Source: Patescibacteria group bacterium
GTDB lineage: Bacteria > Patescibacteriota > Patescibacteriia > 2-02-FULL-49-11
Assembly (NCBI GenBank): GCA_041645165.1
Contig: JBAZQN010000005.1
Location: 19,832-83,831, forward strand
Direction: 5' to 3'
DNA length: 64,000 bases
Shown: positions 1 through 61,245 of the stretch, piece after piece
Layout of the letters: the number at the start of each line of letters is the position of its first letter
How positions within the stretch are numbered: position 1 is the stretch's first letter
Program-made: the position numbers and the translations under genes
The notes under the pieces: model-generated
Seen by the model: the letters and a program-made list of their open reading frames with translations, nothing else
The model's database searches: none
Told to the model about the DNA's origin: nothing

Positions 1-131
1 TGTTTTGTCCATATGTTTAAGTAATAAATTCGGATGAAAAAGATAAAATATTTCATCTACTTGGTATAAGAATTTTTAGGAGATACTATGTAATGAATCG
101 TTGATATACAGACTAAATGTATACTGCGCGG

Positions 132-923
132 TTATCCTTTTGCCATCATGGTGCGGAAGAGGACGACGAGGGGGTCGCCCTTTTTGCGTTGGAGGAGCGA
201 GGGCGTGATCTCAAGCGTGGGAGTGTCGAGGATAAGGCGGGGGTATTCCTTGGTGAGGTTGAGCGCGTTTTCAAACACATAGGCGAGCGGCATAAGGCTT
301 TCCTCATTTTTGTAGAATATATTTTTACCCTCTACTTTTTTAAAATACTTCCGGTAAAAAGCGCGCAAGGTCTCCACCGAGCCGGTGAACGGAGTTTCCG
401 GGGGCACGATGTGATGGGCGCAGATGACTATTTTGGGATCCAATAGCTCAATGTTCTTTTTTGTCTTGTCTAATACGCCCGAGACCTCGGAATCAGACTT
501 TGGCATCGGAAGGAATATGATGTCAGGATGCCCGATTTCCGCGCACTGCTCTTCGGTGAGCTCGTGGGCATTGTCGGCAAAATGCGCGAGGCGTACGCCA
601 TCGACCGTATAGTGCCACGCGATATTGATATCGCCTGCCCATTCATAGATCACCGTCCCGCGCAGGTCGAGATTAGGAAAGGGATTGCTGTGGGTTTTGG
701 TAGGAGGCGCATGATAGAGCCAGCTGCCGGGCGCATAGGAGTGGTCTGCGTCCGGCTCGGAAGAGAGCACGATATTGGCTCCCATAGGCTTCCCCTGAAA
801 TTCGTCAGGGAATTGGGGGCCGAGAGAATACTGCGGATCATTGCTGAAGGGGTCAATAAGAATGCGGAATCCTTGATTATTTTCTATGAGAAAGCAGGAG
901 AGGCCGATGAAGTGGATGGTCAT
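132..923 (-). CDS. Metallo-beta-lactamase-fold metal-dependent hydrolase
   Basis: 263-aa ORF with an MBL-like His/Asp-rich motif (SEPDADH) and overall fold-like pattern; family assignment by eye. Confidence 0.55.
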   Translation of the reverse strand: MTIHFIGLSCFLIENNQGFRILIDPFSNDPQYSLGPQFPDEFQGKPMGANIVLSSEPDADHSYAPGSWLYHAPPTKTHSNPFPNLDLRGTVIYEWAGDINIAWHYTVDGVRLAHFADNAHELTEEQCAEIGHPDIIFLPMPKSDSEVSGVLDKTKKNIELLDPKIVICAHHIVPPETPFTGSVETLRAFYRKYFKKVEGKNIFYKNEESLMPLAYVFENALNLTKEYPRLILDTPTLEITPSLLQRKKGDPLVVLFRTMMAKG

Positions 924-976
924 AGGTCATGGAACATGGAACATATATCATAGAACATATAACATGGATCATGGAA
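921..976. repeat. Heptamer tandem array (CATGGAA-like, about 7 units)
   Basis: catggaa catggaa catatat catagaa catataa catggat catggaa read directly. It is nearly identical to the array at 1611-1665 and an inverted version sits at 2098-2160. Confidence 0.8.
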
Positions 977-1610
977 TTGGCGGTGAATCGGGGGGCCTTT
1001 TTTGCTTTCTTTTACGCGCAATATATAGTAAGAGGGAGAGGAGGGAGAGTGAAGCGTAGTTGAGTATCATAAACCATGACGTAGCCCATGCGATGCCGTT
1101 GAATTTCCATTCAGAGAAAGGCCAGAGGAAGGGAGTTGGGTAAAAGGCAAAAGAGTGGGTAGGAATGTCGGAAAGGATATGGAGAAACCAACCGCCTATT
1201 TCCCAAGGGATGCGTTTGTAGATTATCCAAATAAATGCCAGACATAGAAAAAATACGAAAAGACTGTGGCTGTAATTATAAAGGAGGGTGGCAAGTTGTA
1301 CGGTCCAGTGTGTTGCGGCAGGTGATGGTGCATGTGGCGCGGGCGGGCCTATGCGGGGAACTGAATCGCCGAACAAGGGACCGAGAATGAGCCACGCGAA
1401 AGGAATGCTGAACGCGAAGAGATCAGGAAAAAATCCCCAGAATGCGGCGAGCCAAGGGCTCACCGCCGCGGATTTACGCAGATCGTCTCGCGAGCCCATA
1501 ACGCGGATCAACGCGGAATTGTTTGATTGATGTTTTGTGAGATTGTAGGATTTGGCAGCAGCGGCTGCCCAAAGACCGTGGGCGAGGGTGTCCATAAGAT
1601 CATGGAACAC
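969..1610 (-). CDS. Hypothetical polytopic membrane protein
   Basis: 213-aa hydrophobic ORF with a GTG or ATG start inside or adjacent to the heptamer repeat array. Confidence 0.45.
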   Translation of the reverse strand: MFHDLMDTLAHGLWAAAAAKSYNLTKHQSNNSALIRVMGSRDDLRKSAAVSPWLAAFWGFFPDLFAFSIPFAWLILGPLFGDSVPRIGPPAPHAPSPAATHWTVQLATLLYNYSHSLFVFFLCLAFIWIIYKRIPWEIGGWFLHILSDIPTHSFAFYPTPFLWPFSEWKFNGIAWATSWFMILNYASLSLLSLLLYIARKRKQKRPPDSPPIP

Positions 1611-1708
1611 GTATCATGGAACATGGAACATATATCATAGAACACATAACATGGATTATGGAACATGGAGCATGGAGCATGTAGCACATAACATTGTTCA
1701 TGAGACAG
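1596..1708. repeat. Heptamer tandem array (CATGGAA-like, about 15 units)
   Basis: Period-7 units of the form CATGGAA, CATATAT, CATAGAA, CACATAA, CATGGAG, and so on, filling the intergenic space between two minus-strand genes. Confidence 0.8.
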
Positions 1709-2084
1709 GTTTGGCATGAGAAGTGTTTTTAATTCCCTCAATAGTGGTCCATAACATAGCACCAATTTCATCTGCGAGTTTCATTGACGTTTGAAAATCT
1801 CCTTCAGTCATATAGTTCTCTTTCTTAGAAAATTCAAGTAGATATCTCGATTCTTGAAGGGAACCATATGACATTTCTAAGAAGTTTCTATATACGGTAT
1901 CACGGTTCCGTGCGAATCCTTCGACATAGTTGAGGATTACTGAGAGAGCAGCGCGCCGCAATTGTGAGGTGACGCCGTAAAGCTCCTCATGAGGAAATTT
2001 TTTTGTAAGTGCATATACAAAATGAACATATTCGTCCATCTTTTGTCGGAGTTTCTGATGGAACATTTCATTATTGTATGGCAT
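1698..2084 (-). CDS. Four-helix-bundle protein (23S rRNA intervening-sequence protein family)
   Basis: 128 aa. Motifs FPHEELYGVTSQLRRAALSV..NYVEGF match the TIGR02436/PF05635 four-helix-bundle family. Confidence 0.7.
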   Translation of the reverse strand: MPYNNEMFHQKLRQKMDEYVHFVYALTKKFPHEELYGVTSQLRRAALSVILNYVEGFARNRDTVYRNFLEMSYGSLQESRYLLEFSKKENYMTEGDFQTSMKLADEIGAMLWTTIEGIKNTSHAKPVS

Positions 2085-2097
2085 AGTGGTTTTAATT

Positions 2098-2160
2098 AAT
2101 CAATGAGCCATGTTCTATGTTTCATGTTACGTGTTACATGCTTTATGTTATATATTCATT
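2098..2160. repeat. Inverted copy of the CATGGAA-type heptamer array
   Basis: catgttctatgtttcatgttacgtgttacatgctttatgtt is the reverse complement of the heptamer-array pattern. It lies just upstream of the 4HB gene start. Confidence 0.6.
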
Positions 2161-3410
2161 CCGGTATAGAGGGGATGCGCGTCGGTGAGGTCAGTAACTT
2201 TTTTGCGCACGCGATCCTTCTCTTCTTCGTTATCCCTGTTCTTCAAGGTGCGGACAATCAGTTCCGCGATGGCCTGCATTTCCGGTTCAGTGAATCCCCG
2301 CGTGGTGAGCGCGGCAGTACCGATCCGTAAGCCAGACGGATCCATAGGTTTGCGCGGGTCGAAAGGAATCATGTTTTTATTGGTATAGATTCCCACGCTA
2401 TCGAGCGTTTTTTCCGCTTCTTTTCCTGTAATTCCAAGCGTAGTAAGGTCGAGAAGCAAGAGGTGATTGTCGGTGCCGCCGGAGACGAGCCGTATGCCGT
2501 AGGAGGCGAGTGCAGCGCCCAAGGCCTGGCAATTTCTCACGATTTGCGCGGCGTAACTTTTGAATTCCCCGGTCATCGCTTCACGGAAGCAGACCGCTTT
2601 TGCGGCGATCACATGCTCCAGCGGCCCTCCTTGCATACCCGGCATAACCGCCTTGTCTATTTTTTCCGCATATTCCTTTTTTGAAAGAATAAATGCGCCG
2701 CGCGGGCCGCGCAAGGTCTTATGAGTGGTTGAGCTCACCACATGCGCATAGGGGACCGGAGAAGGATGCACCCCGCCGGCCACGAGCCCAGCAATGTGCG
2801 CCATGTCTACCATGAAGAGTGCGCCCACTTCATCCGCAATTGCGCGAAATGCGGTGAAGTCGATAGTGCGCGGATAGGCAGTGTATCCCGCAAGGATCAG
2901 TTTCGGCCGTTCGCGCAAGGCAATGGCGCGCACCTCATCCATGTCAAGCGTTTCTGTGTCGCGGCGCACGCCATAGGGGATGAAGCGGTAGAATTTGCCG
3001 GAAAAATTTACTGGGCTTCCGTGCGTGAGATGTCCGCCCGATGCGAGGTCCATGGCGAGGACCGTATCGCCCAGCTCAAGCAGCGCAAAGTATGCTTCCA
3101 TGTTCGCGCTCGAGCCGGAGTGCGGCTGCACGTTTGCGTGTTCCGCGCCGAACAATTGTTTAGCGCGCTCGCGCGCAAGGTTTTCTACCACGTCAATCCA
3201 TTCATTGCCGCCATAGTAGCGCTTGCCCGGATAACCCTCGGAATATTTATTCGTGAGGCAGGAGCCCATTGCTTCCAGCACGGCGGGCGAGGTGTAATTT
3301 TCAGACGCGATCATCTCTAAGCCCTGGCGCTGGCGTTTCAGCTCTCCTTGCATGGCATTGCTTAATTCTTCGTCTTGTTGGGTGAGGGTGGTAAAGGAAG
3401 GCATAATCAA
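2148..3410 (-). CDS. glyA: Serine hydroxymethyltransferase
   Basis: 420 aa with full-length SHMT signature ([14 protein letters not shown]..., the PLP region [11 protein letters not shown]). Confidence 0.95.
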
Positions 3411-3756
3411 ATAAGTTCAAAGTTCAAAACTCAAATGTCAAAACTGTATGCGATCGGTGGGTAGTGTCTTGTTGTATCGGAATTTTCCGCCGAAGGCGGA
3501 TCTGCCTCTGGCACGACAATCTTTTCGCGTACGTCAGCGTAAGGTCGGCGTAAGCCTGCCCGCCATAGCCTTGATGAAAATACGCTGCGTCAACTGAGAA
3601 CAAACGATACGCTGTGTTACTCTCATTGATTGTTAGCAGGTTTGGCAGGCGGGTCCGCGATTAATGCCGAAGGCTTAATTTAATTACAACATAGTTTAAT
3701 ATATCGTTAAAATCTGCTAGAATTTACTGTATCACGTATTACCTATATTACCATAT

Positions 3757-4881
3757 TTGTTTATGCGTACGCGACTCATATTCAATATCGCTATCATGGG
3801 AATAGCAGCATTATTGCCTTTTTTTGTATATGCGAGGGGAGACGCGGTGGTGATCTCTGCGGATGAGAACGTGCGGGGCGATGTCGTGCGCATGGGGAGC
3901 ACGGTGCGGATCCTCGCGCCCGTGGACGGTGATGTGATAGTCGCGGGCGGCACTGTAGAGATCGCGGGGCCGGTCACCGGTGACGTGATTGCCATAGGGG
4001 GCGAAGTGCGCATCACGTCTGATGTCGGCGGGAGCGTGCGTGTGGCAGGCGGCACCGTGGAAATTTCAGGCAGCGTCGGCAGGGGCGTGTCCGTGGTGGG
4101 CGGAAGGGTGCAGCTTTCTGATGCATCGGAAGTGGGGTGGAGTATGACCGCGTTCAGCGCAGATGTGGCAATCAATGGGCGCGTGGGGCGCGATGTCCGT
4201 GTGTATGGGGGATCGGTGGCGGTTGCCGGAGAGATAGGAAGGGATCTAACGGTCTACGGCAGGAGCGGCGATCGCGTGACGCTTGAGCCGACCGCAATCG
4301 TGCATGGAGCAATGGATTATACTTCCCAAGAGCCTGCCGCTATCCGCGACGGCGCCGTCGTGGAAGGGGAGATGCGGTTCCACCAGATTTCAAGAGAGAG
4401 CGCCAAGGCCGCATTCGCGGCCCATGCCATTGCCAGCCTTATCCGATTGTTCGGTTTGATTGTGGTGGGACTCGTGCTCATTACGCTTGCCCCGAAGGCC
4501 ATCGAGGTATTAGGTGAAAGGAAAAATGTGTGGACATTGAAAGGAGCGGGGTGGGGGCTGGTATGGCTCGTGCTCCCTCCTTTAGTCGCCCTCGCACTCC
4601 TGTTTACGCTCATCGGCGTGCCGCTCGCGCTTATCCTTGCGGCGCTATGGGCGGTAGGTTTGTATTGCGCGCAGGTCATCGTGGCGTTTACCCTTGGGAA
4701 ACTACTTTTGGTGGATGTATTGAAATCAGAAGCCTCCCACAGGTTTTTCTGCCTCGCGGCTGGCGCCGCGGTATGGATTGCGCTTGTCTCCATCCCGATG
4801 ATAGGATTGATGATCGGACTGGTGGGTACTATTCTAGGGCTCGGAAGCATGGTGGGGTATTTTAGAAAAGGTACTGCATAA
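3757..4881 (+). CDS. Membrane protein with bactofilin-like (polymer-forming) Gly/Val-rich repeat domain and C-terminal multi-TM region
   Basis: Signal or anchor sequence, then repeated GDV..GG.V.I.G.V motifs, then about 4 TM helices. Family assignment is tentative. Confidence 0.45.
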   Translation: MFMRTRLIFNIAIMGIAALLPFFVYARGDAVVISADENVRGDVVRMGSTVRILAPVDGDVIVAGGTVEIAGPVTGDVIAIGGEVRITSDVGGSVRVAGGTVEISGSVGRGVSVVGGRVQLSDASEVGWSMTAFSADVAINGRVGRDVRVYGGSVAVAGEIGRDLTVYGRSGDRVTLEPTAIVHGAMDYTSQEPAAIRDGAVVEGEMRFHQISRESAKAAFAAHAIASLIRLFGLIVVGLVLITLAPKAIEVLGERKNVWTLKGAGWGLVWLVLPPLVALALLFTLIGVPLALILAALWAVGLYCAQVIVAFTLGKLLLVDVLKSEASHRFFCLAAGAAVWIALVSIPMIGLMIGLVGTILGLGSMVGYFRKGTA

Positions 4882-5010
4882 TAAGAGCGTAATGCAATTC
4901 AGTGTATTTCCGTGTAGGATTCAGTTTTTTCAGTGAGAAAAGTTTTTCACACTGAATGCACACGGAAGCATGCACTGAAACGACACAAAAATCGAACTAC
5001 TACTGTTTAC

Positions 5011-5242
5011 TATACTCAATTGCTATTCAAATTCCGATTCCATCGTCATTCCCGCCCCGTATCACGGTACGGGGCAAACCATGGCCTCGCGCAGGCGGGG
5101 CTCCGGCGGGAATCCAGACGCCGTCCTCGACCGAGATCGGGGAACACCAAAAGAAAATCGATGTTTTGTTTGTTTTTTATGTCTGGATTCCAGATCTCGG
5201 TCTGGAATGACAATCGGAATTAGGTTAGCAAGTTAGTATAAT
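5011..5242 (+). mobile_element. MITE-like repeat, copy 1 (subfamily A)
   Basis: Shares termini tatactcaattgctattcaaattccgat... and ...tctggattccagatc.cggtctggaatgacaatcggaat.gggttggcaa.tagtataat with the copies at 43284-43492 and 56272-56474. It has internal GC hairpins and imperfect terminal inverted repeats (attccgatt...tcattcc / ggaatgacaatcggaat). Confidence 0.8.
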
Positions 5243-12480: not shown

Positions 12481-12556
12481 CGTCGGAGCTCGTCTCCGAC
12501 CTCATGGGTGGCAGACAAGCTGCCACGCTACAATTATTGTCTTAATTTAGGCGGGT

Positions 12557-15808: not shown

Positions 15809-15819
15809 AGGTCAATTAA

Positions 15820-15912
15820 GACGGATAAGTCTGATAGGTCCGATAAGACGGATAAGTTGAATAGGGCGGATAAGTATGATGAGCCTGATAAGTCGGATAG
15901 GTCTGATAGGAC
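15820..15912. repeat. Ten tandem 9-bp repeats (consensus GGATAAGTC) filling the rnj-trpS intergenic space
   Basis: ggataagtc tgataggtc cgataagac ggataagtt gaatagggc ggataagta tgatgagcc tgataagtc ggataggtc tgataggac. The array ends 12 nt before the trpS ATG (minus-strand sense CUUAUCN units). Confidence 0.85.
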
Positions 15913-20555: not shown

Positions 20556-23033
20556 TCACAAAACACCCCAATGCGTCAAATGCTTGATGAGGATGAACGC
20601 CTTGCGGCTGCCGATTAGGGCGCTTAATTCTTCGCGGGAAACGCGCCGCAGGGCTTCCACCGATCCATAGGTGGTAAGGAGCAGTTGTCTGGTTTTGGGG
20701 CCGATGCTTGGGAGCGCGTCAAGGCGCGAGAGAGTGAGCTGTTTCGCATGGCGGCTGCGGTAGTGAGTGATAGCGAAACGGTGCGCTTCATCGCGCACGC
20801 GGTCAAGGAGGAGGAGCGCGGGGCTGGAGGGAGGTAGTTTAATGATCGTTCGGATTTCTCGTTGCAAAACACGCCAGTCGTTCGGACTGCCCGCAGAAAA
20901 AGACGCGGTTGACTTCCCCAGCGAGGAAGTCACCGCTCGGCTCTCGGCTTCGCTCGCCCCGCCCGGCGGGGCGCCATGCCCGCGAAGCCTCCGAGACGCT
21001 TTTTCTTTCGGGCGATCCTCACTGAAGGAGTTGAGTGTGGATGGTTTTGTAACGGTAATCCTCTCTCTCGTGAGTGTAAAAATTGTCTCACCCGCGCGCG
21101 GTTTTCTTCCTCGCCCCTTTGCAAGGGAGAGGAGAGGGATGTCGAGCGCATATTCGGCAAGCACCGCGTGCGTTGCATTGAGTTGGGGCACGCCGCCGTC
21201 AATGACAATAAGGTCGGGCAACGGCCATTGGTCAGTTTGTCGGTTTGTCGGTTTGTCAGTTGCCAGTTTGTGAGTGGATGAGTGTCTGCGTAAATCCGCA
21301 CTTGATCCGCGTTGACTTGCCTGCGCAGGCGGGTCTGCGACACTATGGGAGAGGCGGCGGCGGAGGACTTCGGCAAGCATCGCAGGATCATTGCTTCCTG
21401 TGACTGTTTTGATGACGAACCGCCGGTAGGCGGAAGGGTGGAGGACGCCCTGCGCGAGCACGGTCATGGCGCCGACCGCATACGATCCTTGGATATTGGA
21501 AATGTCATAGGCTTCAATGCGCGCGGGGGGGAGAGGAAGATGCAGAAGATTTTGGAGCGTCTCAAGGCTCTCGCGCGCCTGCGCAGACGCGCGCGCTTCG
21601 ATGCCGCCGCGGCGCATCAGTTCTTGGCGCGCATTTTCCTGACCCATCAAGATAAGCTTTTTCTTTTTGCCGCGTTTGGGGACTGCCACCATAATGCGCC
21701 CGGGGAGCGGCGAGAGAAGAGGAAGCGCGGTGTATACTTGCGGCGGAATGTCGCCAGTGCGGGCATAGTAGAGGCTGATAAACGCTTCGAGCGCTTCCTG
21801 TTCATTGGCGCCTTCTGCGTGGGCAAGGGGGAATAGGAGCCGTTCAGTGAGCGCGCCGTCACGGATTTTAAAAAGGTTTACCATGAAATGCGCGCCCTCG
21901 CGCGCCGCGCTCATGATGTCATAGGATTCCCTTTTTACGCTCACGATGGATTGGCGGGCGGTGATGGCACGCAGCGCGGCGATTTGGTCCCGCAGTTTTG
22001 CCGCAGATTCATATCGTCGCTCATCCGACTCCCTCTGCATCTGACTTTTGAGTTGCGCAATAAGCGTGCCGTAATGCCCGCGGAAGAAGGGGAGCATGCG
22101 GCGGATGATGCGCGTGTAGTGGGCAGGGCTCACGATGCCGACGCAGGCGCCGGGGCAGCGGCCGAGGTGGTAATTGAAACAAGGGCGAGAAGGGGGATGT
22201 GGTGAAGGCAGAGCACGATCGTTCGCGGCCACACGATTTTCTTGCTGCGGAACTCGATAGTCCGCTCGGGCTATTCTTGGTGAAACACGCCAGTCGTTCG
22301 GACTGCCCGCAGAAAAAGACGCGGTTGACTTCCCCAGCAAGGAAGTCACCGCTCGGCTCTCGGCTTCGCTCGCCCCGCCCGGCGGGGCGCCATGCCCGCG
22401 AAGCCTCCGAGACGCTTTTTCTTTCGGGCGATCCTCACTGAAGGAGTTGAGTGTGGAGGGTTTCATGAGAATATCCCTAGCTGAGGGAAAAGTATTTCGT
22501 CCGCCTATGCGAGAAGGGGAAGAGAAGGAAGAGGGTGGTTCGGTGCAGTACGGGAAGATGCGTTTGGCGAGGCGGAGCGCGGTGTAGGCGTGGCGCGCGG
22601 AAGTGTAGGGGCCGAAGAGAATGGAGTGCGAGCGCTTGGGGAGCAAGGGGCGGCGCACGGTAGAGACGTCAGCCCACGCGCGGTCGAAATCGAATTTTAT
22701 ATAGACGTAGGATTTATCGTCCGCGAGTATGATGTTATAGGGCGGATGGTGGCGTTTGATGAGTTCTGCTTCAAGAAGCAGCGCTTCGGTTTCATTGGAC
22801 ACGAGTATCGTTTCGAGAGAGGCGATGCTGTTCACCATGAGCTGCTTTTGGGGAGAAAGTTTAAGCGAGGGGGCGACGGTCTTTTTTGTCACGCGGAAAT
22901 AGGAGCGGACGCGGCTGAGTAACCGTTTCGCCTTGCCGATATAGAGAATATTCCCCTTCCCATCTCGGAAAAGATATACCCCCGGGCGAGGGGGTAGGGT
23001 GCGCAATTGGTCAAGGAGGCTCTTTGGTGGCAT
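20556..23033 (-). CDS. uvrC: Excinuclease ABC subunit C carrying in-frame repeat-element insertions
   Basis: GIY-YIG (GVYLFRDGKGNILYIGKAKRL), RPCFNYHLGRCPGACVG, the endonuclease domain and (HhH)2 are present. At 825 aa it exceeds the usual ~600 aa because of two identical 60-aa insertions plus a third repeat-derived insertion. Confidence 0.9.
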   Translation of the reverse strand: MPPKSLLDQLRTLPPRPGVYLFRDGKGNILYIGKAKRLLSRVRSYFRVTKKTVAPSLKLSPQKQLMVNSIASLETILVSNETEALLLEAELIKRHHPPYNIILADDKSYVYIKFDFDRAWADVSTVRRPLLPKRSHSILFGPYTSARHAYTALRLAKRIFPYCTEPPSSFSSPSRIGGRNTFPSARDILMKPSTLNSFSEDRPKEKASRRLRGHGAPPGGASEAESRAVTSLLGKSTASFSAGSPNDWRVSPRIARADYRVPQQENRVAANDRALPSPHPPSRPCFNYHLGRCPGACVGIVSPAHYTRIIRRMLPFFRGHYGTLIAQLKSQMQRESDERRYESAAKLRDQIAALRAITARQSIVSVKRESYDIMSAAREGAHFMVNLFKIRDGALTERLLFPLAHAEGANEQEALEAFISLYYARTGDIPPQVYTALPLLSPLPGRIMVAVPKRGKKKKLILMGQENARQELMRRGGIEARASAQARESLETLQNLLHLPLPPARIEAYDISNIQGSYAVGAMTVLAQGVLHPSAYRRFVIKTVTGSNDPAMLAEVLRRRLSHSVADPPAQASQRGSSADLRRHSSTHKLATDKPTNRQTDQWPLPDLIVIDGGVPQLNATHAVLAEYALDIPLLSLAKGRGRKPRAGETIFTLTRERITVTKPSTLNSFSEDRPKEKASRRLRGHGAPPGGASEAESRAVTSSLGKSTASFSAGSPNDWRVLQREIRTIIKLPPSSPALLLLDRVRDEAHRFAITHYRSRHAKQLTLSRLDALPSIGPKTRQLLLTTYGSVEALRRVSREELSALIGSRKAFILIKHLTHWGVL
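20866..21046. repeat. 181-bp palindrome-rich repeat, copy 1, in frame inside uvrC
   Basis: Identical apart from 2 SNPs to 22284-22464. It contains palindromes GACTTCC..GGAAGTC and CGCCCCGCC-CGG-CGGGGCG and encodes KPSTLNSFSEDRPKEKASRRLRGHGAPPGGASEAESRAVTSLLGKSTASFSAGSPNDWRV. Confidence 0.9.
22284..22464. repeat. 181-bp palindrome-rich repeat, copy 2, in frame inside uvrC
   Basis: Second copy 1.4 kb from the first, same reading frame, translated as the same 60-aa peptide inside the UvrC endonuclease domain. Confidence 0.9.
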
Positions 23034-33056: not shown

Positions 33057-35561
33057 ATGCAAAAGGAAGCTAATGCACGATTAAAAATAAACGCCTTACT
33101 CCAAGAGTCCGGCTGGAGATTTTTTGATGATAAAAAAGGCAAAGCCAATATTGTCTTGGAAAATAACGCCAAAATCACAAAACAAGCCATAGATGAATTT
33201 GGCAACGATTTTGAAAAAACTAACAAAGGTTTTATTGATTTTTTACTGCTCGATGAAAAGGGTTTTCCGTTTGTCGTTTTAGAAGCAAAATCGGAAGACA
33301 AAGACCCTCTCGACGGCAAAGAACAGGCGCGCCGTTATGCCCAATCACAAAACGCCCGCTTTATTATTCTTTCAAACGGCAACCTTCATTATTTATGGGA
33401 TGTAGAGCGCGGCAACCCGACAGTTATCATCACTTTCCCGACTTATGAATCCTTGAAGCATTTTGAATCTTTCAAGCCAAGTTTTGCCGCTCTTTCAGAG
33501 GAAAAAGTTGAAAGCGATTATATTGTCCAAACTCAAAATCCAAATTATCAAAAAGACCCGCGCTGGATTGATGAAACTCAAAGGCCGGATTTTATCAAAG
33601 ATCAGGATTTAAAATTTTTACGGCCTTATCAGCTTTCCGCAATTTACTCCTTGCAGAGTTCGGCGAAAAAAGGCAATGATCGCTATCTTTTTGAAATGGC
33701 AACCGGCACAGGCAAAACTCTTATTGCGGGCGGAATAATCAAGCTGTTTTTGAAAAGCGGAAACGCCAAAAGAATTTTGTTTTTAGTTGATCGCTTGGAA
33801 TTGGAAGATCAAGCGTGGAAAAATTTTGTTCGTTTTCTCAAAAGCGATTTTACCTGCGTAATTTACAAAGAAAACAAAGACGACTGGAGAAAAGCGGAAA
33901 TTATCGTTTCCACAGTTCAAAGTTTGTCATTCAACAATAAATACAAAGAGCTTTTTTCACCGACAGATTTTGATTTGTTAATATCTGATGAAGCGCACCG
34001 TTCAATCGGCGGAAATAGCCGGGCAGTTTTTGAGTATTTTGTCGGGTATAAATTAGGGCTTACCGCCACGCCGAAAGATTATCTCAAAAATATTGACCCG
34101 CAAAAAGTCAGCGAGAAAGACCCGCGCGCTTGGGAACGCCGTCAGCTTTTGGATACTTACACGACTTTTGGCTGTCCTTCCGGCGAGCCGACTTTCCGAT
34201 ACAGCTTGCTTGACGGCGTAAAAGACGGCTATCTTGTTAATCCGATTGTCGCCGACGCGAGGACAGAAATCACCACCGAACTTTTATCAGAAAAAGGTTA
34301 TTCCTTAATGGTAGAAAACGAGGAAGGAATTGAGGAAGAACAAACCTTTTTCCAAAAAGATTTTGAGCGGAAATTTTTCTCCGATAAAACAAATCAGATT
34401 TTTTGCAAAACATTTTTAGAAAATGCGATCAAAGACCCGATTAGCGGGGAAATTGGAAAGAGTATTATTTTCTGCGTGAGTCAAAATCACGCTTCAAAAA
34501 TAACGCAAACTTTAAATCAATTTGCTACGGCTCTTTGGCCCGACAAATATAATTCCGACTTTGCCGTGCAGGTTACTTCCAATATTCCCGACTCTCAACA
34601 ATTTCCTATCAATTACGCAAACAATTATCTAAACGGACAAACAAAATGGCTGGCGGGCTATAAATCAAGCAAGACAAGAGTTTGCGTAACCGTCGGCATG
34701 ATGACAACTGGCTACGATTGCCAAGATGTGATGAATCTTTGCCTTATGCGACCAATTTTTTCTCCGACTGATTTTATTCAAATCAAAGGACGCGGAACGA
34801 GAAAATATACTTTCAGCTACAAAGACGCAGACAATGAGCTGATAAAAATAGAAAAAGACACTTTCAAACTTTTTGATTTCTTCGCTAACTGCGAATATTT
34901 TGAGGAAAAATACAATTACGATCAAGTTTTGAAGCTCCCGATTAAAACCGGAACGGGAACAGGCGGCGGCGAGGGCGTAGATATTGATGAAGTAAATATT
35001 TTTAATCCCGACCCGCTCAAAACTTTTTCAGAAATTGCAGTCGGCCTTGCCGGTATGAAAGTTGACTGGAAGTTTTTTGATAAATTTGAATCGGTTGTAA
35101 AAAATGATCCGGTTGTTAAACAAAAATACGAGCAGGGCGATGTCAAAGGAGCGGAAGAATATGTTAAAACCGAAATTTTTGAAAAACCGGAAGATTATTT
35201 CAATTTGGATAAATTGCGAAAATCCGTCAAAGCAGATCGTCGCATTACGCTCAAAGAATTTATTGAAAAAATCTTTGGTGGTATAAACAAATTCAAATCA
35301 AAAGACGAATTGCTTGAAGATGAATTTGAAAAGTTTGTTTCTATCCACAAACCCGAAAATGATAATCTTTTACAAATTAAAAATTTTCTAAAATGTTATG
35401 TTGCAGATCAGGAATTTAGAACAATTATTGACAATAATCAAATCCAACGGTTATACACCTACCCAAGTTTTTCCGCTAATGAACTTAATGAATTGGGTAA
35501 GTATAAAAAGATTGTACCGGAATATGTCAAAGATTATGTTTCCTTAAATACTTTTATGTAA
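33057..35561 (+). CDS. hsdR: Type I restriction enzyme R subunit
   Basis: N-terminal PD-(D/E)xK nuclease (DFLLLDEKGFPFVVLEAKSED) and SF2 helicase motifs (ATGTGKT, DEAH: LLISDEAHRS). Confidence 0.85.
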   Translation: MQKEANARLKINALLQESGWRFFDDKKGKANIVLENNAKITKQAIDEFGNDFEKTNKGFIDFLLLDEKGFPFVVLEAKSEDKDPLDGKEQARRYAQSQNARFIILSNGNLHYLWDVERGNPTVIITFPTYESLKHFESFKPSFAALSEEKVESDYIVQTQNPNYQKDPRWIDETQRPDFIKDQDLKFLRPYQLSAIYSLQSSAKKGNDRYLFEMATGTGKTLIAGGIIKLFLKSGNAKRILFLVDRLELEDQAWKNFVRFLKSDFTCVIYKENKDDWRKAEIIVSTVQSLSFNNKYKELFSPTDFDLLISDEAHRSIGGNSRAVFEYFVGYKLGLTATPKDYLKNIDPQKVSEKDPRAWERRQLLDTYTTFGCPSGEPTFRYSLLDGVKDGYLVNPIVADARTEITTELLSEKGYSLMVENEEGIEEEQTFFQKDFERKFFSDKTNQIFCKTFLENAIKDPISGEIGKSIIFCVSQNHASKITQTLNQFATALWPDKYNSDFAVQVTSNIPDSQQFPINYANNYLNGQTKWLAGYKSSKTRVCVTVGMMTTGYDCQDVMNLCLMRPIFSPTDFIQIKGRGTRKYTFSYKDADNELIKIEKDTFKLFDFFANCEYFEEKYNYDQVLKLPIKTGTGTGGGEGVDIDEVNIFNPDPLKTFSEIAVGLAGMKVDWKFFDKFESVVKNDPVVKQKYEQGDVKGAEEYVKTEIFEKPEDYFNLDKLRKSVKADRRITLKEFIEKIFGGINKFKSKDELLEDEFEKFVSIHKPENDNLLQIKNFLKCYVADQEFRTIIDNNQIQRLYTYPSFSANELNELGKYKKIVPEYVKDYVSLNTFM

Positions 35562-35563
35562 TT

Positions 35564-36592
35564 ATGAAAAAATTACAACCTCAATCACAAATAATTATCT
35601 ATAAAGCAGAAACAGGCGAGACTAAAATCGATGTGCGTTTTGACGGTGAAACAGTGTGGTTAACGCAAAAACTTTTAGCTGAACTTTTTGGCGTTACTGT
35701 TCCTACTATCAATGAACATATTAAAAATGTTTACAAAGAAGGTGAATTAAAGGAAAGCTCAACTATTCGGAAATTCCTAATAGTTCAAAAAGAAGGCATT
35801 CGTGAAGTAGAAAGAGAGATTGATTTTTTTAATCTCGACATGATTATCTCTGTCGGTTACCGTATTAAAAGCTCTATCGCCACAGCTTTTCGTCAATGGG
35901 CAACTTTGCGACTACGCGAATATATTGTCAAGGGCTTTGTAATAGATGATGAACGATTAAAGAATCCCGATCTGCCATTTGATTATTTTGAAGAATTAAC
36001 TCGTCGTATCTCAGAAATACGCGCCTCAGAAAAGAGATTTTATAGAAAAATTACCGACATCTATGCCACCAGTGTTGACTATGACCCGACAGATGAGAAG
36101 AGTACCCTCTTTTTTAAAACAGTTCAAAACAAAGTTCATTATGCGATTACGGGAAGCACTGCGGCAGAGATAATCGCGAGCAGGGTGGATAGTAAAAAAA
36201 CAAATGTAGGCCTCACAAACTTCAGGGGCAGTAAGCCAACAAAAGAAGAAGTTTTGTTTGCCAAAAATTATTTGAGCGAGCAGGAACTTCTCGTTTTAAA
36301 TAATCTTGTCGAGCAATATCTCGTATTTGCCGAAGGACAGGCGATGCAGAGAGTGCCAATGTATATGAAGGACTGGATAGATAAACTCCACGGATTTTTA
36401 CAGATTAACAATAAAGATATTTTGAAAGATGCGGGCAAGGTCTCGCATGAGTTGGCAAAAGAGTTAGCTGAAAAAGAATATGATAAATATTACAAAAAAA
36501 GTTTAAAAGCGCCAAGCAAGGCGGACAGAGATTTTGAGGCATTCGCGAATAAAGCGATGAAACTTGTTAGCAAGGGTAAAAAGAAAAAATAA
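35564..36592 (+). CDS. rhuM: RhuM-family virulence/DNA-binding protein (typical Type I RM locus passenger)
   Basis: The N-terminal IIYKAETGETKIDVRFDGETVWLTQKLLAELFGVTVPTINEHIKNVYKEGEL pattern is characteristic of RhuM. Confidence 0.8.
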   Translation: MKKLQPQSQIIIYKAETGETKIDVRFDGETVWLTQKLLAELFGVTVPTINEHIKNVYKEGELKESSTIRKFLIVQKEGIREVEREIDFFNLDMIISVGYRIKSSIATAFRQWATLRLREYIVKGFVIDDERLKNPDLPFDYFEELTRRISEIRASEKRFYRKITDIYATSVDYDPTDEKSTLFFKTVQNKVHYAITGSTAAEIIASRVDSKKTNVGLTNFRGSKPTKEEVLFAKNYLSEQELLVLNNLVEQYLVFAEGQAMQRVPMYMKDWIDKLHGFLQINNKDILKDAGKVSHELAKELAEKEYDKYYKKSLKAPSKADRDFEAFANKAMKLVSKGKKKK

Positions 36593-36594
36593 TT

Positions 36595-39108
36595 ATGAAT
36601 TATCAAGAAATAAAACAAAAAATAAAAAATTGCCGCAACATTCTTGTTGGAATTGTTCCTAGTCCTGAAGCGCAAGTGCAACAAATCACTATTGCTTTGA
36701 TGTATAAATTTATGGATGATATGGATAAAGAAGCGCAGGAAAAACACGACGCCCCGCCAATGTTTTTTGCCGGCGAATTTGCTAAATATTCCTGGACTAA
36801 ACTTTTGTCGCCACAAGTAGGAAATCAAGAGAGATTAAATCTTTACGCGGAAGCGATTGAAAAAATGAATGAAAATAAAGACATTCCACAACTTTTTAGA
36901 GATATTTTCAAAGGAGCCTTTTTGCCATATCGCAGTCCCGAATCCCTTAGTTTATTTTTAAAAGAAATAAACGGTTTTACTTATGATAACAGTGAAAATT
37001 TAGGCAATGCCTTTGAACATTTGCTTTCAATTATGGGCAGTCAAGGCGACGCGGGGATGTTCAGAACCCCAAGACACATTATTGATTTTATTGTTGACGC
37101 GGTTGATCCGCAAAAAAATGAAAATATTTGCGATCCAGCTTGCGGATCTGCGGGTTTTCTTATTTCCGCCTACAAACACATAATAAACGCAAACACAAAA
37201 GAGAAAAAAGGCGATCTTTTATCGCCGGAAGAAAAGAAAAAACTTATTAAAAATTTTTCAGGTTATGATGTATCGCCGGATATGGTTCGTTTATCAAAAG
37301 TGAACATGTATTTTCATGGATTTCTTGACCCAACAATTTATGAATATGACACGCTTGGGCAAGAGGAAAAATGGGACGAAAGTTTTGATGTTATGCTTGC
37401 AAATCCGCCGTTTATGTCGCCAAAAGGCGGAATACGACCGCATAAAAGATTTTCCGTGCAAGCCAATCGCTCCGAAGTGCTTTTTGTGGATTATATTTTA
37501 GAGCATTTGCGTCCCAAAGGCCGCGCCGGCATTATCGTTCCGGAAGGAATTATTTTTCAATCCGCGACCGCTTATAAAGCGTTAAGAAAATTAATGATTG
37601 AAGACGGACTTTTGGCAGTTGTTTCGTTACCGGCTGGCGTTTTCAATCCATATGCCGGAGTAAAAACAAGCATTTTGTTTTTTGATAATGAAATTGCCAA
37701 GAAAACGAAAAATATTTTATTTCTGAAAATTCAAAATGACGGCTATGACCTTGGCGCGCAAAGACGAGAAATTGACAAAAACGATTTACCTTTGGCTTTG
37801 GAAATTATTAAGAAATACAAAGAGGTTCTTTCCTCCTGTCATTCCGTACTTGATACGGAATCTATAAAGAAAGAGCTGGATTCCCGTTTTCACGGGAATG
37901 ACAAATGGGGAGAAATCGCTCATCTTGTCGCCAAAGAAAAAATCGCCGAAACCGGCGACTACAATCTTTCGGGCGATAGATATAAAGAAAATAATAATTT
38001 TATAAACAGAAAATGGCCAATGGTTAGTTTAGATGAAGTTATTGATTTGAATTTTGGCGTAAGAATAACTAAAAAGAATAGCGAGGGGATAGAATACCCT
38101 GTTTATGGTGGCGGTGGTGAAAGTTTTAGAACCGATACATTTAATAGAGAGGACGAACTTATTATTTCTCGTTTTGCGATGGCAGAATGGTGTGTCCGCT
38201 TTGTAAAAGGAAAGTTTTATTTATTAGATTCAGGATTTACTTTTTCCGTGAAGCCAGAAAAGAAAAATGAAGTATTGAAAGATTATATTGATAGATATTT
38301 TCTTTCAACACAACAAAGGATTTATTCCTGCGCGCGAGGTCATGCCCAGAAAAATCTTGATGTAAAACAATTCAAGTCGCTTAAAATCCCGTTTCCTCCG
38401 ATTGAAGTCCAGAAAAAAATCGTTGAGCAGATTGAAGTTAAGCAAAACGCCATAGATCACGCCAAAGCAATCATCCAAAGTCTAGAGAGAGAGAGACGCT
38501 ATTTTGGTCAATCACTTAGAAAATTAAAAGGTGTTGAGTTGGTGAAATTGGAAAATATTTGTGATGATTTTAGAAATGGAGTTAATTTTTCCAAAGAGCA
38601 AGTAGGAAGAGGCACAAAACTTGTGAATATTAAAGACTTATTTAACGACGGATATGTTGATGTTGAAAATTTGGAACAAGTTGAATTAAAGGATAAAGAG
38701 GTGATAAAAAACACTCTCAAAGACGACGATTTATTATTTGTTCGTTCATCAGTCAAATACGAAGGTTGCGGCTACCCATCTCTTATTAGGGTAGGAAAGG
38801 AAAATATTGTTTTTTGTGGTTTCATTATCAAATGTTCGCCAAATAAAAAGAAGGTTTATCCGAAATATTTGCTGCATCTTTTAAGGTCTGAGGAATATCG
38901 GAATCAAGTTATCATTTTATCTAACCGAGCAAATATAACAAACATATCACAGGATAGAATAAAATCAGTAAAAATTATTTTGCCGTCAATTGAAACGCAA
39001 AAGCAGTTAGCAGATGAGGTAGAAAAAGAGCAAGAATTTATAAATATAAATAAGCAGTTGATTAAAATATACGAGCAAAAAATCGCTGATGTTTTAAGTG
39101 AAATATAG
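36595..39108 (+). CDS. Type I RM methyltransferase-specificity fusion (HsdM N-terminal ~470 aa + two-TRD HsdS C-terminal ~360 aa)
   Basis: N6-adenine MTase motifs (DPACGSAGFL, NPPF) followed by two target-recognition domains with HsdS-type conserved spacers (FPPIEVQKKIVEQIE.., LPSIETQKQLADEVEKE..). Confidence 0.8.
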   Translation: MNYQEIKQKIKNCRNILVGIVPSPEAQVQQITIALMYKFMDDMDKEAQEKHDAPPMFFAGEFAKYSWTKLLSPQVGNQERLNLYAEAIEKMNENKDIPQLFRDIFKGAFLPYRSPESLSLFLKEINGFTYDNSENLGNAFEHLLSIMGSQGDAGMFRTPRHIIDFIVDAVDPQKNENICDPACGSAGFLISAYKHIINANTKEKKGDLLSPEEKKKLIKNFSGYDVSPDMVRLSKVNMYFHGFLDPTIYEYDTLGQEEKWDESFDVMLANPPFMSPKGGIRPHKRFSVQANRSEVLFVDYILEHLRPKGRAGIIVPEGIIFQSATAYKALRKLMIEDGLLAVVSLPAGVFNPYAGVKTSILFFDNEIAKKTKNILFLKIQNDGYDLGAQRREIDKNDLPLALEIIKKYKEVLSSCHSVLDTESIKKELDSRFHGNDKWGEIAHLVAKEKIAETGDYNLSGDRYKENNNFINRKWPMVSLDEVIDLNFGVRITKKNSEGIEYPVYGGGGESFRTDTFNREDELIISRFAMAEWCVRFVKGKFYLLDSGFTFSVKPEKKNEVLKDYIDRYFLSTQQRIYSCARGHAQKNLDVKQFKSLKIPFPPIEVQKKIVEQIEVKQNAIDHAKAIIQSLERERRYFGQSLRKLKGVELVKLENICDDFRNGVNFSKEQVGRGTKLVNIKDLFNDGYVDVENLEQVELKDKEVIKNTLKDDDLLFVRSSVKYEGCGYPSLIRVGKENIVFCGFIIKCSPNKKKVYPKYLLHLLRSEEYRNQVIILSNRANITNISQDRIKSVKIILPSIETQKQLADEVEKEQEFININKQLIKIYEQKIADVLSEI

Positions 39109-39110
39109 TT

Positions 39111-43209: not shown

Positions 43210-43283
43210 GATTTATTCTCTCATTGCCGCCAGAGGCGGACACAGCGTGCGCTTTGCCGCATGAGCAGAAAATTTATATTACT

Positions 43284-43492
43284 ATACTCGATTGCTATTC
43301 AAATTCCGATTCTATCGTCATTCCCGCCCCGTATCACGGTACGGGGCAGGCTCCAGCGGGAATCCAGACGCCGTCCTCGACCGAGATCGGGGAACACCAA
43401 AAGAAAATAGATTTTTTTGTTTGTTTTTTATGTCTGGATTCCAGATCAGGTCTGGAATGACAATCGGAACTGGGTTGGCAATGTAGTATAAT
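43284..43492 (+). mobile_element. MITE-like repeat, copy 2 (subfamily A)
   Basis: About 90% identical to 5011-5242. Its right end supplies TAGTATAAT 10 nt upstream of the methyltransferase ATG. Confidence 0.8.
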
Positions 43493-45089: not shown

Positions 45090-45155
45090 TTAAATTGCAG
45101 TAATTTTAATTCTCTCATTTGACTCCGTTATACCACGGGACAAGCATGCTGACCC

Positions 45156-45314
45156 AATTCCGATCGTCATTCCAGACTTGATCTGGAATCCAGAAACAAA
45201 AATAAACAAAAACCGATCGATTTTTATGTTTGTTTTGGTTTTCTAGATCCCGCATCTTAAGTGCGGGATGACGGTGAGGATCGGAATTTGAATAGCAATT
45301 GAGTATAACAAGCA
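45156..45314 (-). mobile_element. MITE-like repeat, copy 3 (subfamily B, inverted orientation)
   Basis: Same termini as copies 1, 2 and 5 but a different core (cgcacttaagatgcgggatctagaaaac...). A TTGACA-N17-ATAGGA promoter-like sequence abuts it at 45319-45347, facing the thrC-like gene. Confidence 0.7.
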
Positions 45315-56246: not shown

Positions 56247-56271
56247 AACGGATTTACGCGGATTATACTCA

Positions 56272-56474
56272 ATTGCTATTCAATTCCGATTCCATCGTCA
56301 TCCCCGCCCCGTATCAAGGTACGGGGCAAGCTCCAGCGGGAATCCAGACGCCGTCCTCGACCGAGATCGGGGAAAACCAAAAGAAAATTGATCTTTTTGT
56401 TTGTTTTATGTCTGGATTCCAGATCCCGGTCTGGAATGACAATCGGAATTGGGTTGGCAAATTAGTATATTATA
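56272..56474 (+). mobile_element. MITE-like repeat, copy 5 (subfamily A)
   Basis: About 90% identical to copies 1 and 2. It lies between the convergent aminotransferase and leuB genes. Confidence 0.8.
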
Positions 56475-57558: not shown

Positions 57559-57590
57559 ATCAATACGCATCAATGAGATTTTTTCACATT

Positions 57591-57661
57591 GTAGCGTGGT
57601 AGCTTGTCTACCACTCACGATGTCTTATTGTCGGAGGCAAGCTCCGACGCTACTATTCTTG
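57591..57661 (-). repeat. Structured hairpin repeat (GTAGCGTGG...ACGCTAC), copy 1, leuD-leuB intergenic
   Basis: gtagcgtggtagcttgtctaccac...gcaagctccgacgctac is homologous to 61158-61245. It has nested inverted repeats with a long-range closing stem. Confidence 0.55.
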
Positions 57662-59835: not shown

Positions 59836-59951
59836 AGCAATGAAAATCCCAAATCCCAATTTCCAATGACCAATAAAATCCAAATGTGAAAATCCCAAAT
59901 TGGTCATTCAGTCATTAATGCATTGGTTGGTCATTGGGGTTTGGGCATTGG
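59836..59951 (-). promoter_or_regulatory. leuA-leuC intergenic region packed with ATTGGTCAT/ATGACCAAT palindromic half-sites and AAATCCC repeats
   Basis: The 9-mer ATTGGTCAT occurs four times and its reverse complement ATGACCAAT once, plus a 10-bp inverted repeat AATGACCAAT/ATTGGTCATT around a 24-nt loop, immediately upstream of the leuC ATG. Confidence 0.45.
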
Positions 59952-61145: not shown

Positions 61146-61157
61146 ATTTATTCATGG

Positions 61158-61245
61158 TAGCGTGGCAGTTTATCTGCCACCGATAGGTTACTTGAAGTCG
61201 CAGACAAGCCTGCTTGCGCAGGCAAGCTGCGACGCTACGAATTGG
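61158..61245 (-). repeat. Structured hairpin repeat, copy 2, in the leuA 5' leader
   Basis: gtagcgtggcagtttatctgccac...gtcgcagacaagcctgcttgcgcaggcaagctgcgacgctac. Confidence 0.55.

Follow-up and report, generated by a model that had tools for sequence, protein, structure and literature searches.

Why should short tandem repeats stand directly in front of start codons in a genome that makes almost no use of Shine-Dalgarno (SD) motifs? The question is raised by a stretch of 64,000 nucleotides (nt) from a Patescibacteria group bacterium (contig JBAZQN010000005.1, positions 19,832 to 83,831; G+C content 49%), referred to below as the window, and in particular by four genes on its minus strand: glyA, a gene for a four-helix-bundle (4HB) protein, a gene for a YdjM-like membrane protein and a gene for a metallo-β-lactamase (MBL)-fold hydrolase. 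An earlier note on this DNA gave each gene a repeat array of its own and proposed that such arrays enhance translation initiation, serve as platforms for RNA-binding proteins or act as hypermutable contingency tracts. The answer that we favour, with a little more confidence than doubt, separates two kinds of array: those with a CATG core are the arms of a hairpin cassette built around the 4HB gene, and the others are leader repeats belonging to families of simple sequence repeats (SSRs) that occupy many loci. That the CATG-core arrays belong to the 4HB cassette, and not to the MBL or membrane-protein genes, had been missed. The window belongs to a genome of Candidatus Uhrbacteria, a member of the candidate phyla radiation, and its 64 kb are the part of that genome covered here. 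Relatives were gathered through protein searches and contig look-ups and carry locus labels, L001 being Candidatus Uhrbacteria bacterium RIFCSPLOWO2_02_FULL_49_11 and L002/L094 a Patescibacteria metagenome-assembled genome; searching metagenomes with the MBL protein yielded just a single contig, short and distant.

The 4HB protein matches PF05635, a family called "23S rRNA intervening-sequence protein" or S23p, with 96.5 bits (cutoff 33.8) and TIGR02436 with 94.6 bits. Its only relative in the PDB is 2GSC, the protein XCC0516 of Xanthomonas campestris, which was deposited with five chains. The gene and its surroundings are organized as follows.

132-923, minus strand: MBL-fold hydrolase gene (PF13483, by Pfam)
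921-976, minus strand: duplicate of the 3' arm, filling the spacer from the membrane-protein stop to the MBL start
969-1595, minus strand: YdjM-like membrane protein gene, between two direct TTCCATG arrays
1596-1697, minus strand: 3' arm, some 14 heptamers of the (TTCCATG) type that span the interval between the 4HB stop and the start of the membrane protein
1698-2084, minus strand: 4HB gene, 128 amino acids, recognized by its PF05635 and TIGR02436 scores
2085-2147, minus strand: 5' arm of the cassette, (AACATGR)-type heptamers, filling the spacer from the glyA stop to the 4HB start
2148-3404, minus strand: glyA (serine hydroxymethyltransferase); its linkage to the 4HB gene is kept in L087, L085 and L089/L092

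The array upstream of the 4HB gene is an inverted form of the array downstream of it. When the 576-nt 4HB transcript is folded, a long-range stem joins the two (minimum free energy (MFE) -145.3 kcal/mol, z -4.67, equalled by 0 of 100 shuffles), with 2085-2147 pairing to 1611-1680 in both the MFE and the centroid predictions. The duplex between the two flanks has a z-score of -6.7, or -3.6 with uniform windows; the flanks of 15 other genes of the window, used as a control, give values between -2.0 and +1.8. Part of the 3' arm is present a second time, as 924-976 and 1613-1665 are copies of one 53-nt module (50 of 53 positions identical), and the start of the MBL gene, ACCTATG, is in register with the heptamers of 921-976. 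At the corresponding junction between membrane-protein and MBL genes, L084 has AACAATTT and 9-mer units in place of the TTCCATG array. The array at 921-976 is a recent local duplicate of the 3' arm that has replaced a 9-mer array present in relatives.

The cassette layout is present in every relative from the candidate phyla radiation (CPR) that was retrieved. The 4HB proteins of these loci are 90% (L087), 74% (L088), 73% (L085), 69% (L089/90/92) and 62% (L099-L108) identical to that of the window, and arrays stand at the 4HB gene in all seven CPR cassettes examined. Homologous 5' arms are found in L087 and L085. Behind the 4HB stop, TTCCATG is the unit in the window, L087, L085 and L099, with variants in L089 (GTTCCAA) and in L088 (TTACATG units, further downstream). 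In L085, L089 and L099 the start codon of the 4HB gene is itself part of the 5' arm (AUGGAAC); the 3' arm, which sets in at the stop codon or immediately behind it, has the complementary sequence (GUUCCAU). Flank-to-flank duplexes have z-scores of -4.4 to -6.7 in five CPR loci and, with uniform windows, of -3.5 to -5.9 in five of the seven cassettes. The arms differ in length: roughly 14 heptamers come after the 4HB stop in the window, compared to some 6 in L087, some 4 in L085 and 2 or 3 in L099-L108, and one TGTTCCA unit differs in 1 of the 10 near-identical strains of the L099 group (99.7-100% identical). In L085 the MBL gene overlaps the preceding gene and there is no array at the junction.

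The L099 locus has a second, distant 4HB paralogue (25-35% identical), flanked by ATTAGAA/TTCTAAT; its ATTAGAA unit recurs in three nearby solitary arrays. These ten strains vary in other ways as well. A 42-nt variable-number tandem repeat (about 579-840 of L099), each unit of which is a small hairpin, is present in 2.3 to 6.3 copies, and the strains have either one or two copies of a 147-nt module that lies downstream of the second 4HB gene.

Comparable cassettes occur far outside the CPR. A tblastn search of a plasmid collection gave 22 records, of which 21 are cyanobacterial and almost all from the heptamer-rich Nostocales; 15 loci were read. A tandem array lies at or overlaps the 3' end of the 4HB gene in 15/15 of these cyanobacterial plasmid genes and within 90 nt upstream in 11/15, with a period of 7 in most. 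The flanks are inverse complements in about 12 of the 15 loci, for example (TCAGGAG)n/(CTCCTGA)n, (GGGGAGT)n/(CCCTACT)n, (AGGGAAG)n/(CTTTTCC)n and (AGGGTGT)n/(CTACACC)n, and the duplex energies of a locus's own pair reach -59 kcal/mol, compared to a cross-locus mean of -28. As a baseline, 50 kb of the Nostoc plasmid pNPUN02 has arrays near 2 of 58 stops and 5 of 58 starts (3-9%). In total, 22 of 22 cassettes (7 from groundwater CPR bacteria and 15 cyanobacterial) are abutted by arrays, mostly of heptamers and usually inverted. For Xanthomonas, a published table gives, as its repeat 15, a GGGAATC x4 array that overlaps the XCC0516 start codon (PMC4692102), and the same study counts 70-75 convergent array pairs per genome without mentioning the protein family (PMC4692102).

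Several of the cyanobacterial 4HB genes are wedged into operons. They lie within CRISPR-cas operons in L110, L122 and L124 (cas6-4HB-cas4 twice, cas10-4HB-cmr3) and elsewhere between nrd genes; in L114 and L121 the 4HB gene lies antisense, with genes of a single operon on either side.

The repeat unit follows the 4HB protein subfamily. All six CPR proteins that cluster at 50% identity or more have CATG-core units, and all five Nostocales proteins beginning with MRQ have TCAGGAG/CTCCTGA. CAAACTT/CTTCTGC is common to L113 (Nostoc) and L123 (Stanieria), which belong to different cyanobacterial orders, and AAAGCT to L121 and L124. The 5' arm carries the initiation signal of the host, AGGAG repeats in cyanobacteria and the AUG region in the SD-less CPR bacteria, and the 3' arm carries its complement. 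The cassette architecture, seen in all 7 CPR and 15 cyanobacterial cassettes, is a property of the family. Full-text literature searches found no paper linking S23p/4HB genes to heptamer repeats.

The likeliest function of the cassette, in which we have moderate confidence, would be that of an RNA stem, resembling an intervening sequence (IVS), by which the cassette is masked and insulated. Within the transcript, pairing would occur between the 5' arm and the 3' arm, which starts at the 4HB stop codon. The stem would enclose the open reading frame (ORF), as in the intervening sequences of 23S rRNA to which the family owes its name, would hide the cassette's own ribosome-loading site and would turn the insertion into a compact module within the operon, probably cleavable by RNase III. 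Replication slippage would shift the length of the arms in 7-nt steps.

The remaining arrays of the window are of a different kind. They were located as follows.

3405-3445, minus strand: T-rich glyA leader array (TTTTGAC ATTTGAG TTTTGAA CTTTGAA ...), with homologous arrays in L094 and L001
3737-3757, plus strand: TATTACC x2.5 array, 5 nt upstream of the start of a DUF8173 gene
15809-15912, minus strand: eleven 9-mers (WCYTATCMG) filling the spacer from the RNase J stop to the trpS start, with the start codon as the 12th unit (ACCTAT-G)
21231-21275, minus strand: 8-mer array, ACTGACAA x5.8, in frame within the uvrC linker; a related array is found at the same place in L094
23967-24027, plus strand: CATTGAAA / TTGATGC-type array; its end is 17-18 nt upstream of uvrA's corrected start
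46617-46643, plus strand: GAACAGT x3.9, 27 nt, in frame within a PALP-family enzyme gene
59836-59951, minus strand: inverted array pair (CCAATGM ... ATTGGKM / GGGATTT) in the spacer between a leuA-like gene and leuC
63901-63935, plus strand: GTGTTTTAT x4 array, lying downstream of the final gene that the window contains in full; the gene after it is outside

Every array named in the earlier note was recovered by Tandem Repeats Finder, at 921-976 (period of 7/21 nt), 1599-1686 (7/21/35), 2109-2140 (7), 3413-3445 (7), 15817-15908 (9/18/27) and 59844-59983 (7). Two independent Logan contigs from the same sample are base-identical over 2085-2147, 3405-3445, 15809-15912 and most of 1596-1697; the arrays they cover are therefore not assembly artefacts. 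Nor are the arrays expected by chance. Ten intergenic arrays (429 nt) lie in 8,502 intergenic nt, whereas 100 dinucleotide shuffles of the intergenic DNA contain on average 0.4 arrays (9 nt) and never more than 3. Seven of 46 upstream windows (-60 to -1) are periodic at p<=0.01, compared to none of 46 mid-coding windows. The proximity to start codons is equally real: in long intergenic regions arrays are biased towards the start (combined p about 6e-4), and forward-oriented arrays precede SD-less starts with gaps of 0-19 nt. Arrays account for 6.2% of the intergenic bases of the window; the figure is 9.9% for close relatives and 1.4% for 78 loci from outside the CPR. The 64 kb contain at least eight unit families, of 7-9 nt each, and TTCCATG, TTTGAAC and CCAATGA recur across loci.

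The arrays at glyA, DUF8173, trpS, uvrA and leuC have no 4HB linkage in the available sequence, and they are slippage-prone SSRs of the kind known as TAACTGA repeats and short tandemly repeated repetitive (STRR) sequences. The 9-mer of trpS illustrates their behaviour. It was found as 44 units in seven arrays at four gene junctions of five genomes, with six positions almost invariant. Apart from trpS, it lies between glyA and the membrane-protein gene in L001, between the membrane-protein and MBL genes in L084, and in L002/L094 on both sides of MBL, towards glyA and towards the gene that follows (for a small protein); in L001, L094 and L084 it thus occupies junctions where the window has TTCCATG. 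The trpS junction of L094 contains not the 9-mer but a palindromic AATGCAA/ATTTTGA element around a GC hairpin. At this junction there are 11 units in the window, 5 in L093 and 4.3 in L095-L098, with the ends of the array conserved, and in 6 of the 7 9-mer arrays the start codon is in register as the last unit (WCYTAT-G for WCYTAT-C). The gene specificity proposed in the earlier note does not survive these observations: the 53-nt module precedes two genes, WCYTATCMG is found at four junctions in five related genomes, and units are traded between orthologous junctions and common to several loci and species.

The leader arrays are nevertheless not simply neutral. Aligned arrays are 94, 85 and 79% identical, compared to 72-80, 48 and 53% at the third codon positions of the flanking genes; for the glyA leader array and L094, the respective values are 79% and 53%. 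The conserved unit cores suggest a shared RNA- or DNA-binding factor rather than a gene-specific role; an RNA-binding-protein platform, as the earlier note had it, is possible. The uvrA array is part of an insertion of ~217 nt that is missing from L094. The leuC spacer folds as one long imperfect hairpin (predicted -40.9 kcal/mol, z -1.95), and both this spacer and the trpS spacer of L094 are inverted array pairs without an ORF. We propose that a few multi-locus SSR families would occupy the SD-less, AU-rich leaders and spacers of the Uhrbacteria clade. Slipped-strand mispairing would create and resize the arrays (4 to 11 units at one junction), which would replace one another at junctions and run in register into the U-AUG start.

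A CTTTGAA x3.7 array at 59958-59983, in the inverse orientation of the glyA leader unit TTTGAAC, codes for the final residues (KFKFQSSKK) of the leuA-like protein. Between the glyA leader array and a divergent promoter region conserved in L001 and L094, a unique insertion of ~200 nt (3462-3690) holds GC-rich hairpins and short repeats of the CGTAAG type.

A conserved promoter-like site, TTAATA-16-TGcTAGAAT, lies at 3696-3723 upstream of the TATTACC array, placing this array in a 5' leader. A scan of positions 1-4000 for promoters and terminators gave counts at shuffle level and no site within any array. Predicted folding of the region from -45 to +15 is the same for array genes and others (-8.0 and -7.7 kcal/mol, Mann-Whitney p = 1.0; z -0.7 and -0.3), which rules out an unstructured landing pad as a special property of the array leaders.

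The start codons themselves have a simple context. The description of the genome as SD-less was essentially right, since a GGAG-type motif at -5 to -16 precedes only about 3 of 48 genes. A T stands before the start codon in 37 of the 42 ATG-start genes of the window; for L094 the count is 14 of 16 and for L095 it is 10 of 12. C is never found at -1 in the window, and the bias at -1 is weaker in more distant CPR loci. Positions -2 to -20 are about 75% A+T and poor in G, and no upstream consensus beyond U at -1 and AU-richness was found in the window genes. An anti-SD motif is detected in only 48% of Parcubacteria (PMC9297842), and U(-1) can pair with A37 of the initiator tRNA, aiding initiation (PMC10018350). 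The start context fits SD-independent initiation helped by U(-1)-A37 pairing, and it does so better than widespread leaderless transcription, which was rejected because there is no strong -10 signal at -12 to -7 and C is never found at -1.

Repeats also affect gene calling. The starts of leuC, uvrA and the membrane protein needed correcting because repeats lengthen naive ORFs: leuC truly starts at about 59835 (MSKTLYDKIWD), so that the entire 59836-59951 spacer is repeat, uvrA starts at 24045, and the membrane protein starts at the ATG at 1595, as set by its conserved N-terminus MDTLAHGLW.

Four Uhrbacteria strains (L095-L098, 99.9-100% identical) show no array indel at all, whereas the ten strains of the L099 group vary. 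The suggestion of classical contingency tracts is not supported: the arrays border on housekeeping genes, they are located outside reading frames, and their length does not change among the four Uhrbacteria strains. Overall, the earlier observation stands as far as the arrays and the near-absence of SD motifs are concerned, and not in the gene specificity. Its functional interpretation likewise keeps the recurrent arrays abutting starts, the SD-less genome and the probable location of the arrays in leaders or intercistronic RNA, and loses the gene-specific role.

Several points weigh against the cassette-and-leader interpretation. Transcription of the arrays, the stem in vivo, its cleavage by RNase III and an effect on translation are steps that we infer. 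No RNase III gene lies in the window, and the present 4HB start in the window and in L087 lies in a loop, not in the stem. Under the strict uniform duplex test, two of the seven CPR cassettes fall short: L087, which passes if a broader flank window is taken, and L099a, whose stem is only 12 bp. Flanks in L113 and L124 are non-complementary or direct, and several cyanobacterial z-scores are weak because shuffled purine-rich and pyrimidine-rich flanks also pair well. The cyanobacterial sample is all plasmid-borne, with a baseline from one plasmid, and the free choice of register inflates identity in alignments of repeats. Finally, the unit is conserved within a protein clade, which complementarity alone does not explain and which trans-acting recognition fits better.

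Such recognition is the core of an alternative that we regard as possible but unlikely, in which the 4HB protein is a trans partner binding its own heptamer unit as RNA, single-stranded or double-stranded DNA. The flanking units would then serve autoregulation or co-mobilisation, and the solitary arrays would be extra binding sites or ORF-less derivatives. The co-variation of unit and protein clade persists at divergences where neutral DNA is randomised, the distant L099 paralogues carry different units, one of which (ATTAGAA) recurs in solitary arrays nearby, and the plasmid matches are concentrated in the heptamer-rich Nostocales. XCC0516 and Avd, the homologous protein of diversity-generating retroelements (DGRs), form pentamers, and Avd binds nucleic acid. 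The array on XCC0516 comes from a GGGAATC-rich Xanthomonas (PMC4692102), and a repeat-binding protein was suggested by MacGregor as a possible mobile element (PMC4679880). The same correlation is, however, predicted by inheritance or transfer of whole cassettes together with a cis constraint on the arms. Arrays also far exceed 4HB genes, with 186 in X. campestris (PMC4692102) and at least eight unit families for one 4HB gene in the 64-kb window, and the known partner of Avd, a reverse transcriptase, is absent here. A broader version, which would unite PF05635 proteins and bacterial heptamer arrays into one system, each subfamily recognising its own unit, is similarly speculative, with a small chance of being right; the gene would lie within an inverted pair of these units, as RAYT genes do within REPINs, and solitary start-adjacent arrays, being extra sites or ORF-less derivatives of that system, would influence how mRNA is processed or translation begins where SD usage is weak or lacking.

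It is decidedly unlikely that all arrays are functionless products of slippage accumulating in the short spacers of a compact genome, most of which precede some gene. The exchange of units at orthologous junctions, some of which lack arrays altogether (uvrA in L094, MBL in L085), the free variation of copy number, the arrays in coding regions where the frame allows and the unremarkable leader folding are all consistent with such neutrality, and heptamers are the commonest long bacterial SSR class, attributed to polymerase slippage (Mrazek 2007, as quoted in PMC4679880). Neutrality does not account for the start-proximal bias within long intergenic regions, unit cores conserved across species with saturated synonymous sites, start codons in register, the association with 4HB genes in 22/22 cassettes against a 3-9% baseline, or flank complementarity specific to 4HB genes. 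We consider it very unlikely that each array is a gene-specific translation-initiation enhancer standing in for the SD motif. About 80% of window genes have the same AU-rich, U(-1) context without an array, arrays are swapped or absent at orthologous genes and vary 2-3 fold in copy number, they confer no folding advantage, one module serves unrelated genes, and the array upstream of the 4HB gene is in the opposite orientation; these points offset the position of the arrays at SD-less starts, the resemblance of the unit YUAUC to the U-AUG start context of 87% of genes and a comparable proposal for TAACTGA repeats (PMC4679880). Contingency tracts or DNA-level elements (promoter spacers, iterons or DnaA-box-like clusters) are the most improbable of these possibilities. 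Heptamer SSRs are reported to control hmw expression in Haemophilus (PMC8262952, PMC12721329), and one TGTTCCA unit differs among near-identical CPR strains, but here the neighbours are glyA, trpS, leuC and uvrA, steps of 7-9 nt upstream of an ATG and outside ORFs cannot switch a frame, and the Uhrbacteria arrays do not change length. At the DNA level, TTATCCGTC has TTATCC in common with the DnaA box but the CACA half is missing, the promoter scan gave no excess and no site inside arrays, and at least eight unit families would demand as many DNA-binding proteins in a genome of probably ~1 Mb, the CPR norm.

Other identities for the arrays were rejected on simpler grounds. DnaA boxes were dismissed, as TTATCCGTC matches TTATCCACA in TTATCC only. 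Rho-utilisation sites would fit the C-rich, G-poor 9-mer and TTCCATG arrays but not the C-free glyA array or those in divergent regions. CRISPR arrays are excluded by contiguous units without spacers, and MITEs (miniature inverted-repeat transposable elements) by the lack of terminal inverted repeats, target-site duplications and a near-identical multicopy structure. A near-cognate start hidden in every unit has too high a chance expectation for AT-rich 7-9-mers in few families. Strain-level hypermutability in Uhrbacteria is contradicted by the absence of indels in L095-L098.

Some features of the surrounding DNA may be recorded here. The glyA product is 91% identical to that of L001 and 87% to that of L002/L094. 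The YdjM-like membrane protein is absent from L002/L094 and, in L001, is fused to the C-terminus of the MBL hydrolase: ORF 2162-2524 of L001, which was not used as evidence, combines the membrane protein's N-terminus (MDTLAHGLWAA) with the C-terminal third of the hydrolase and may have arisen by a deletion in this lineage or by mis-assembly across repeats. A low-GC region at 33057-41456, with G+C at third codon positions of about 0.31-0.37 compared to about 0.63 elsewhere in the window, has genes for the R subunit of a type I restriction enzyme, for RhuM, for a methylase fused to a specificity subunit and for an AAA_13 ATPase, and is probably a horizontally acquired defence island. The gene at 45435-47378 fuses a PALP (pyridoxal-phosphate) enzyme domain to a C-terminal LeuA allosteric dimerisation domain.

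The window also contains longer repeats. Two copies identical at 178 of 180 nt (20868-21047 and 22284-22463, minus strand) lie in frame within uvrC (20556-23033), each adding about 60 residues, with a related insertion at the first site in L094 and L096; they recall the in-frame palindromic elements of Rickettsia. A MITE-like intergenic family of about 210-240 nt, with 84-85% identity, is found at 5007-5242, 43279-43492, 56264-56469 and, reversed, 45147-45307, and its copies often finish in TAGTATAAT immediately ahead of a start codon. GC hairpins with the pattern GTGGCAG-loop-CTGCCAC and then GCTAC lie 3' of genes (12481-12556, 57588-57649 and 61154-61188) and may be terminators or elements resembling repetitive extragenic palindromes (REPs). 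An Rfam scan of the whole window found no family reaching its gathering score.

The analysis ties together two puzzles that are decades old, the heptamer arrays and the S23p/4HB gene family. To our knowledge, no function has been assigned to the widespread Avd-related S23p proteins outside DGRs. What is new is the identification of the arms of the 4HB cassette as heptamer arrays, and of a gene family abutted by such arrays in CPR bacteria and cyanobacteria and in one published case from Xanthomonas. The link opens cheap and direct tests in the tractable Nostoc PCC 7120 and Xanthomonas campestris, and even if the cassette provides nothing but cis-acting hairpin insulation, it remains an example of a selfish insertion rendered harmless in operons. 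For annotation, starts in the Uhrbacteria clade are marked by U-AUG and not by SD motifs, and arrays blur gene starts, as the over-extended calls for leuC, uvrA and the membrane protein illustrate.

Among known systems, the nearest to the cassette is the S23p-bearing IVS. In Coxiella, the S23p ORF is enclosed by a terminal stem of 28 bp, which RNase III cleaves, and such elements in Coxiella and Leptospira are seen as selfish insertions tolerated because they are excised (PMC4990558). Common to both is a PF05635 ORF enclosed by complementary termini able to form a stem. The window has no rRNA, and its cassette is located between protein genes of an operon (glyA and the membrane-protein gene), not in helix 25 or 45 of 23S rRNA; its arms are tandem heptamers of variable length, and their cleavage is a prediction.

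A gene flanked by inverted copies of a repeat that matches the gene subfamily is also characteristic of the REP/REPIN-RAYT systems, in which RAYT genes are said to be flanked by inverted REPs with the repeat dispersed in the same genome, as Nunvar in 2010 and Bertels and Rainey in 2011 reportedly described. RAYT is a catalytic Y1 transposase, whereas we know of no catalytic activity of the 4HB protein; REPs are palindromic rather than tandem, and a partnership of 4HB protein and repeat is hypothetical. Hints that a matching repeat may be dispersed come from the ATTAGAA arrays near the second L099 paralogue and the 186 GGGAATC arrays of X. campestris (PMC4692102). DGR Avd shares the homologous four-helix-bundle fold, but the 4HB protein scores below the cutoffs of the Avd models (PF22296, bAvd, 34.2 < 40; NF033474, 33.9 < 80), and its neighbours are glyA and the membrane-protein gene, with no adjacent reverse transcriptase.

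For the leader arrays the closest parallels are other heptamers, which have been known since about 1990 and used in strain typing; the cyanobacterial STRR repeats were reportedly described by Mazel in 1990. Like the arrays of the window, the STRRs and long SSRs of Nostocales and Xanthomonas consist of head-to-tail units of 5-11 nt beyond the expectation from composition, in several heptamer families dispersed over intergenic loci, with strain-variable length and frequent inverted pairs. They differ in having been treated as G-quadruplex or fingerprinting elements, without a connection to 4HB genes (Rehm 2015, PMC4692102), and heptamers dominate the class of long SSRs as defined by Mrazek (as quoted in PMC4679880). 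The TAACTGA repeats are heptamers of Beggiatoaceae, Cyanobacteria and Bacteroidetes that end near starts lacking a ribosome-binding site, and no 4HB link is noted for them (MacGregor 2015, PMC4679880). No array of this type is present in the window, and one (CAGTTAT x3.4, the reverse complement of the TAACTGA unit) was found among the relatives, within an ORF at 4534-4558 of L001. The resemblance is otherwise extensive: the TAACTGA repeats also occur in 2 to many copies, mostly intergenic and forward, a few nt before starts of unrelated or housekeeping genes, with some in frame within ORFs and 7-nt indels between strains. The arrays described here are distinguished by their CPR host and by their diversity, with at least eight families of 7-9 nt that are exchanged at orthologous junctions.

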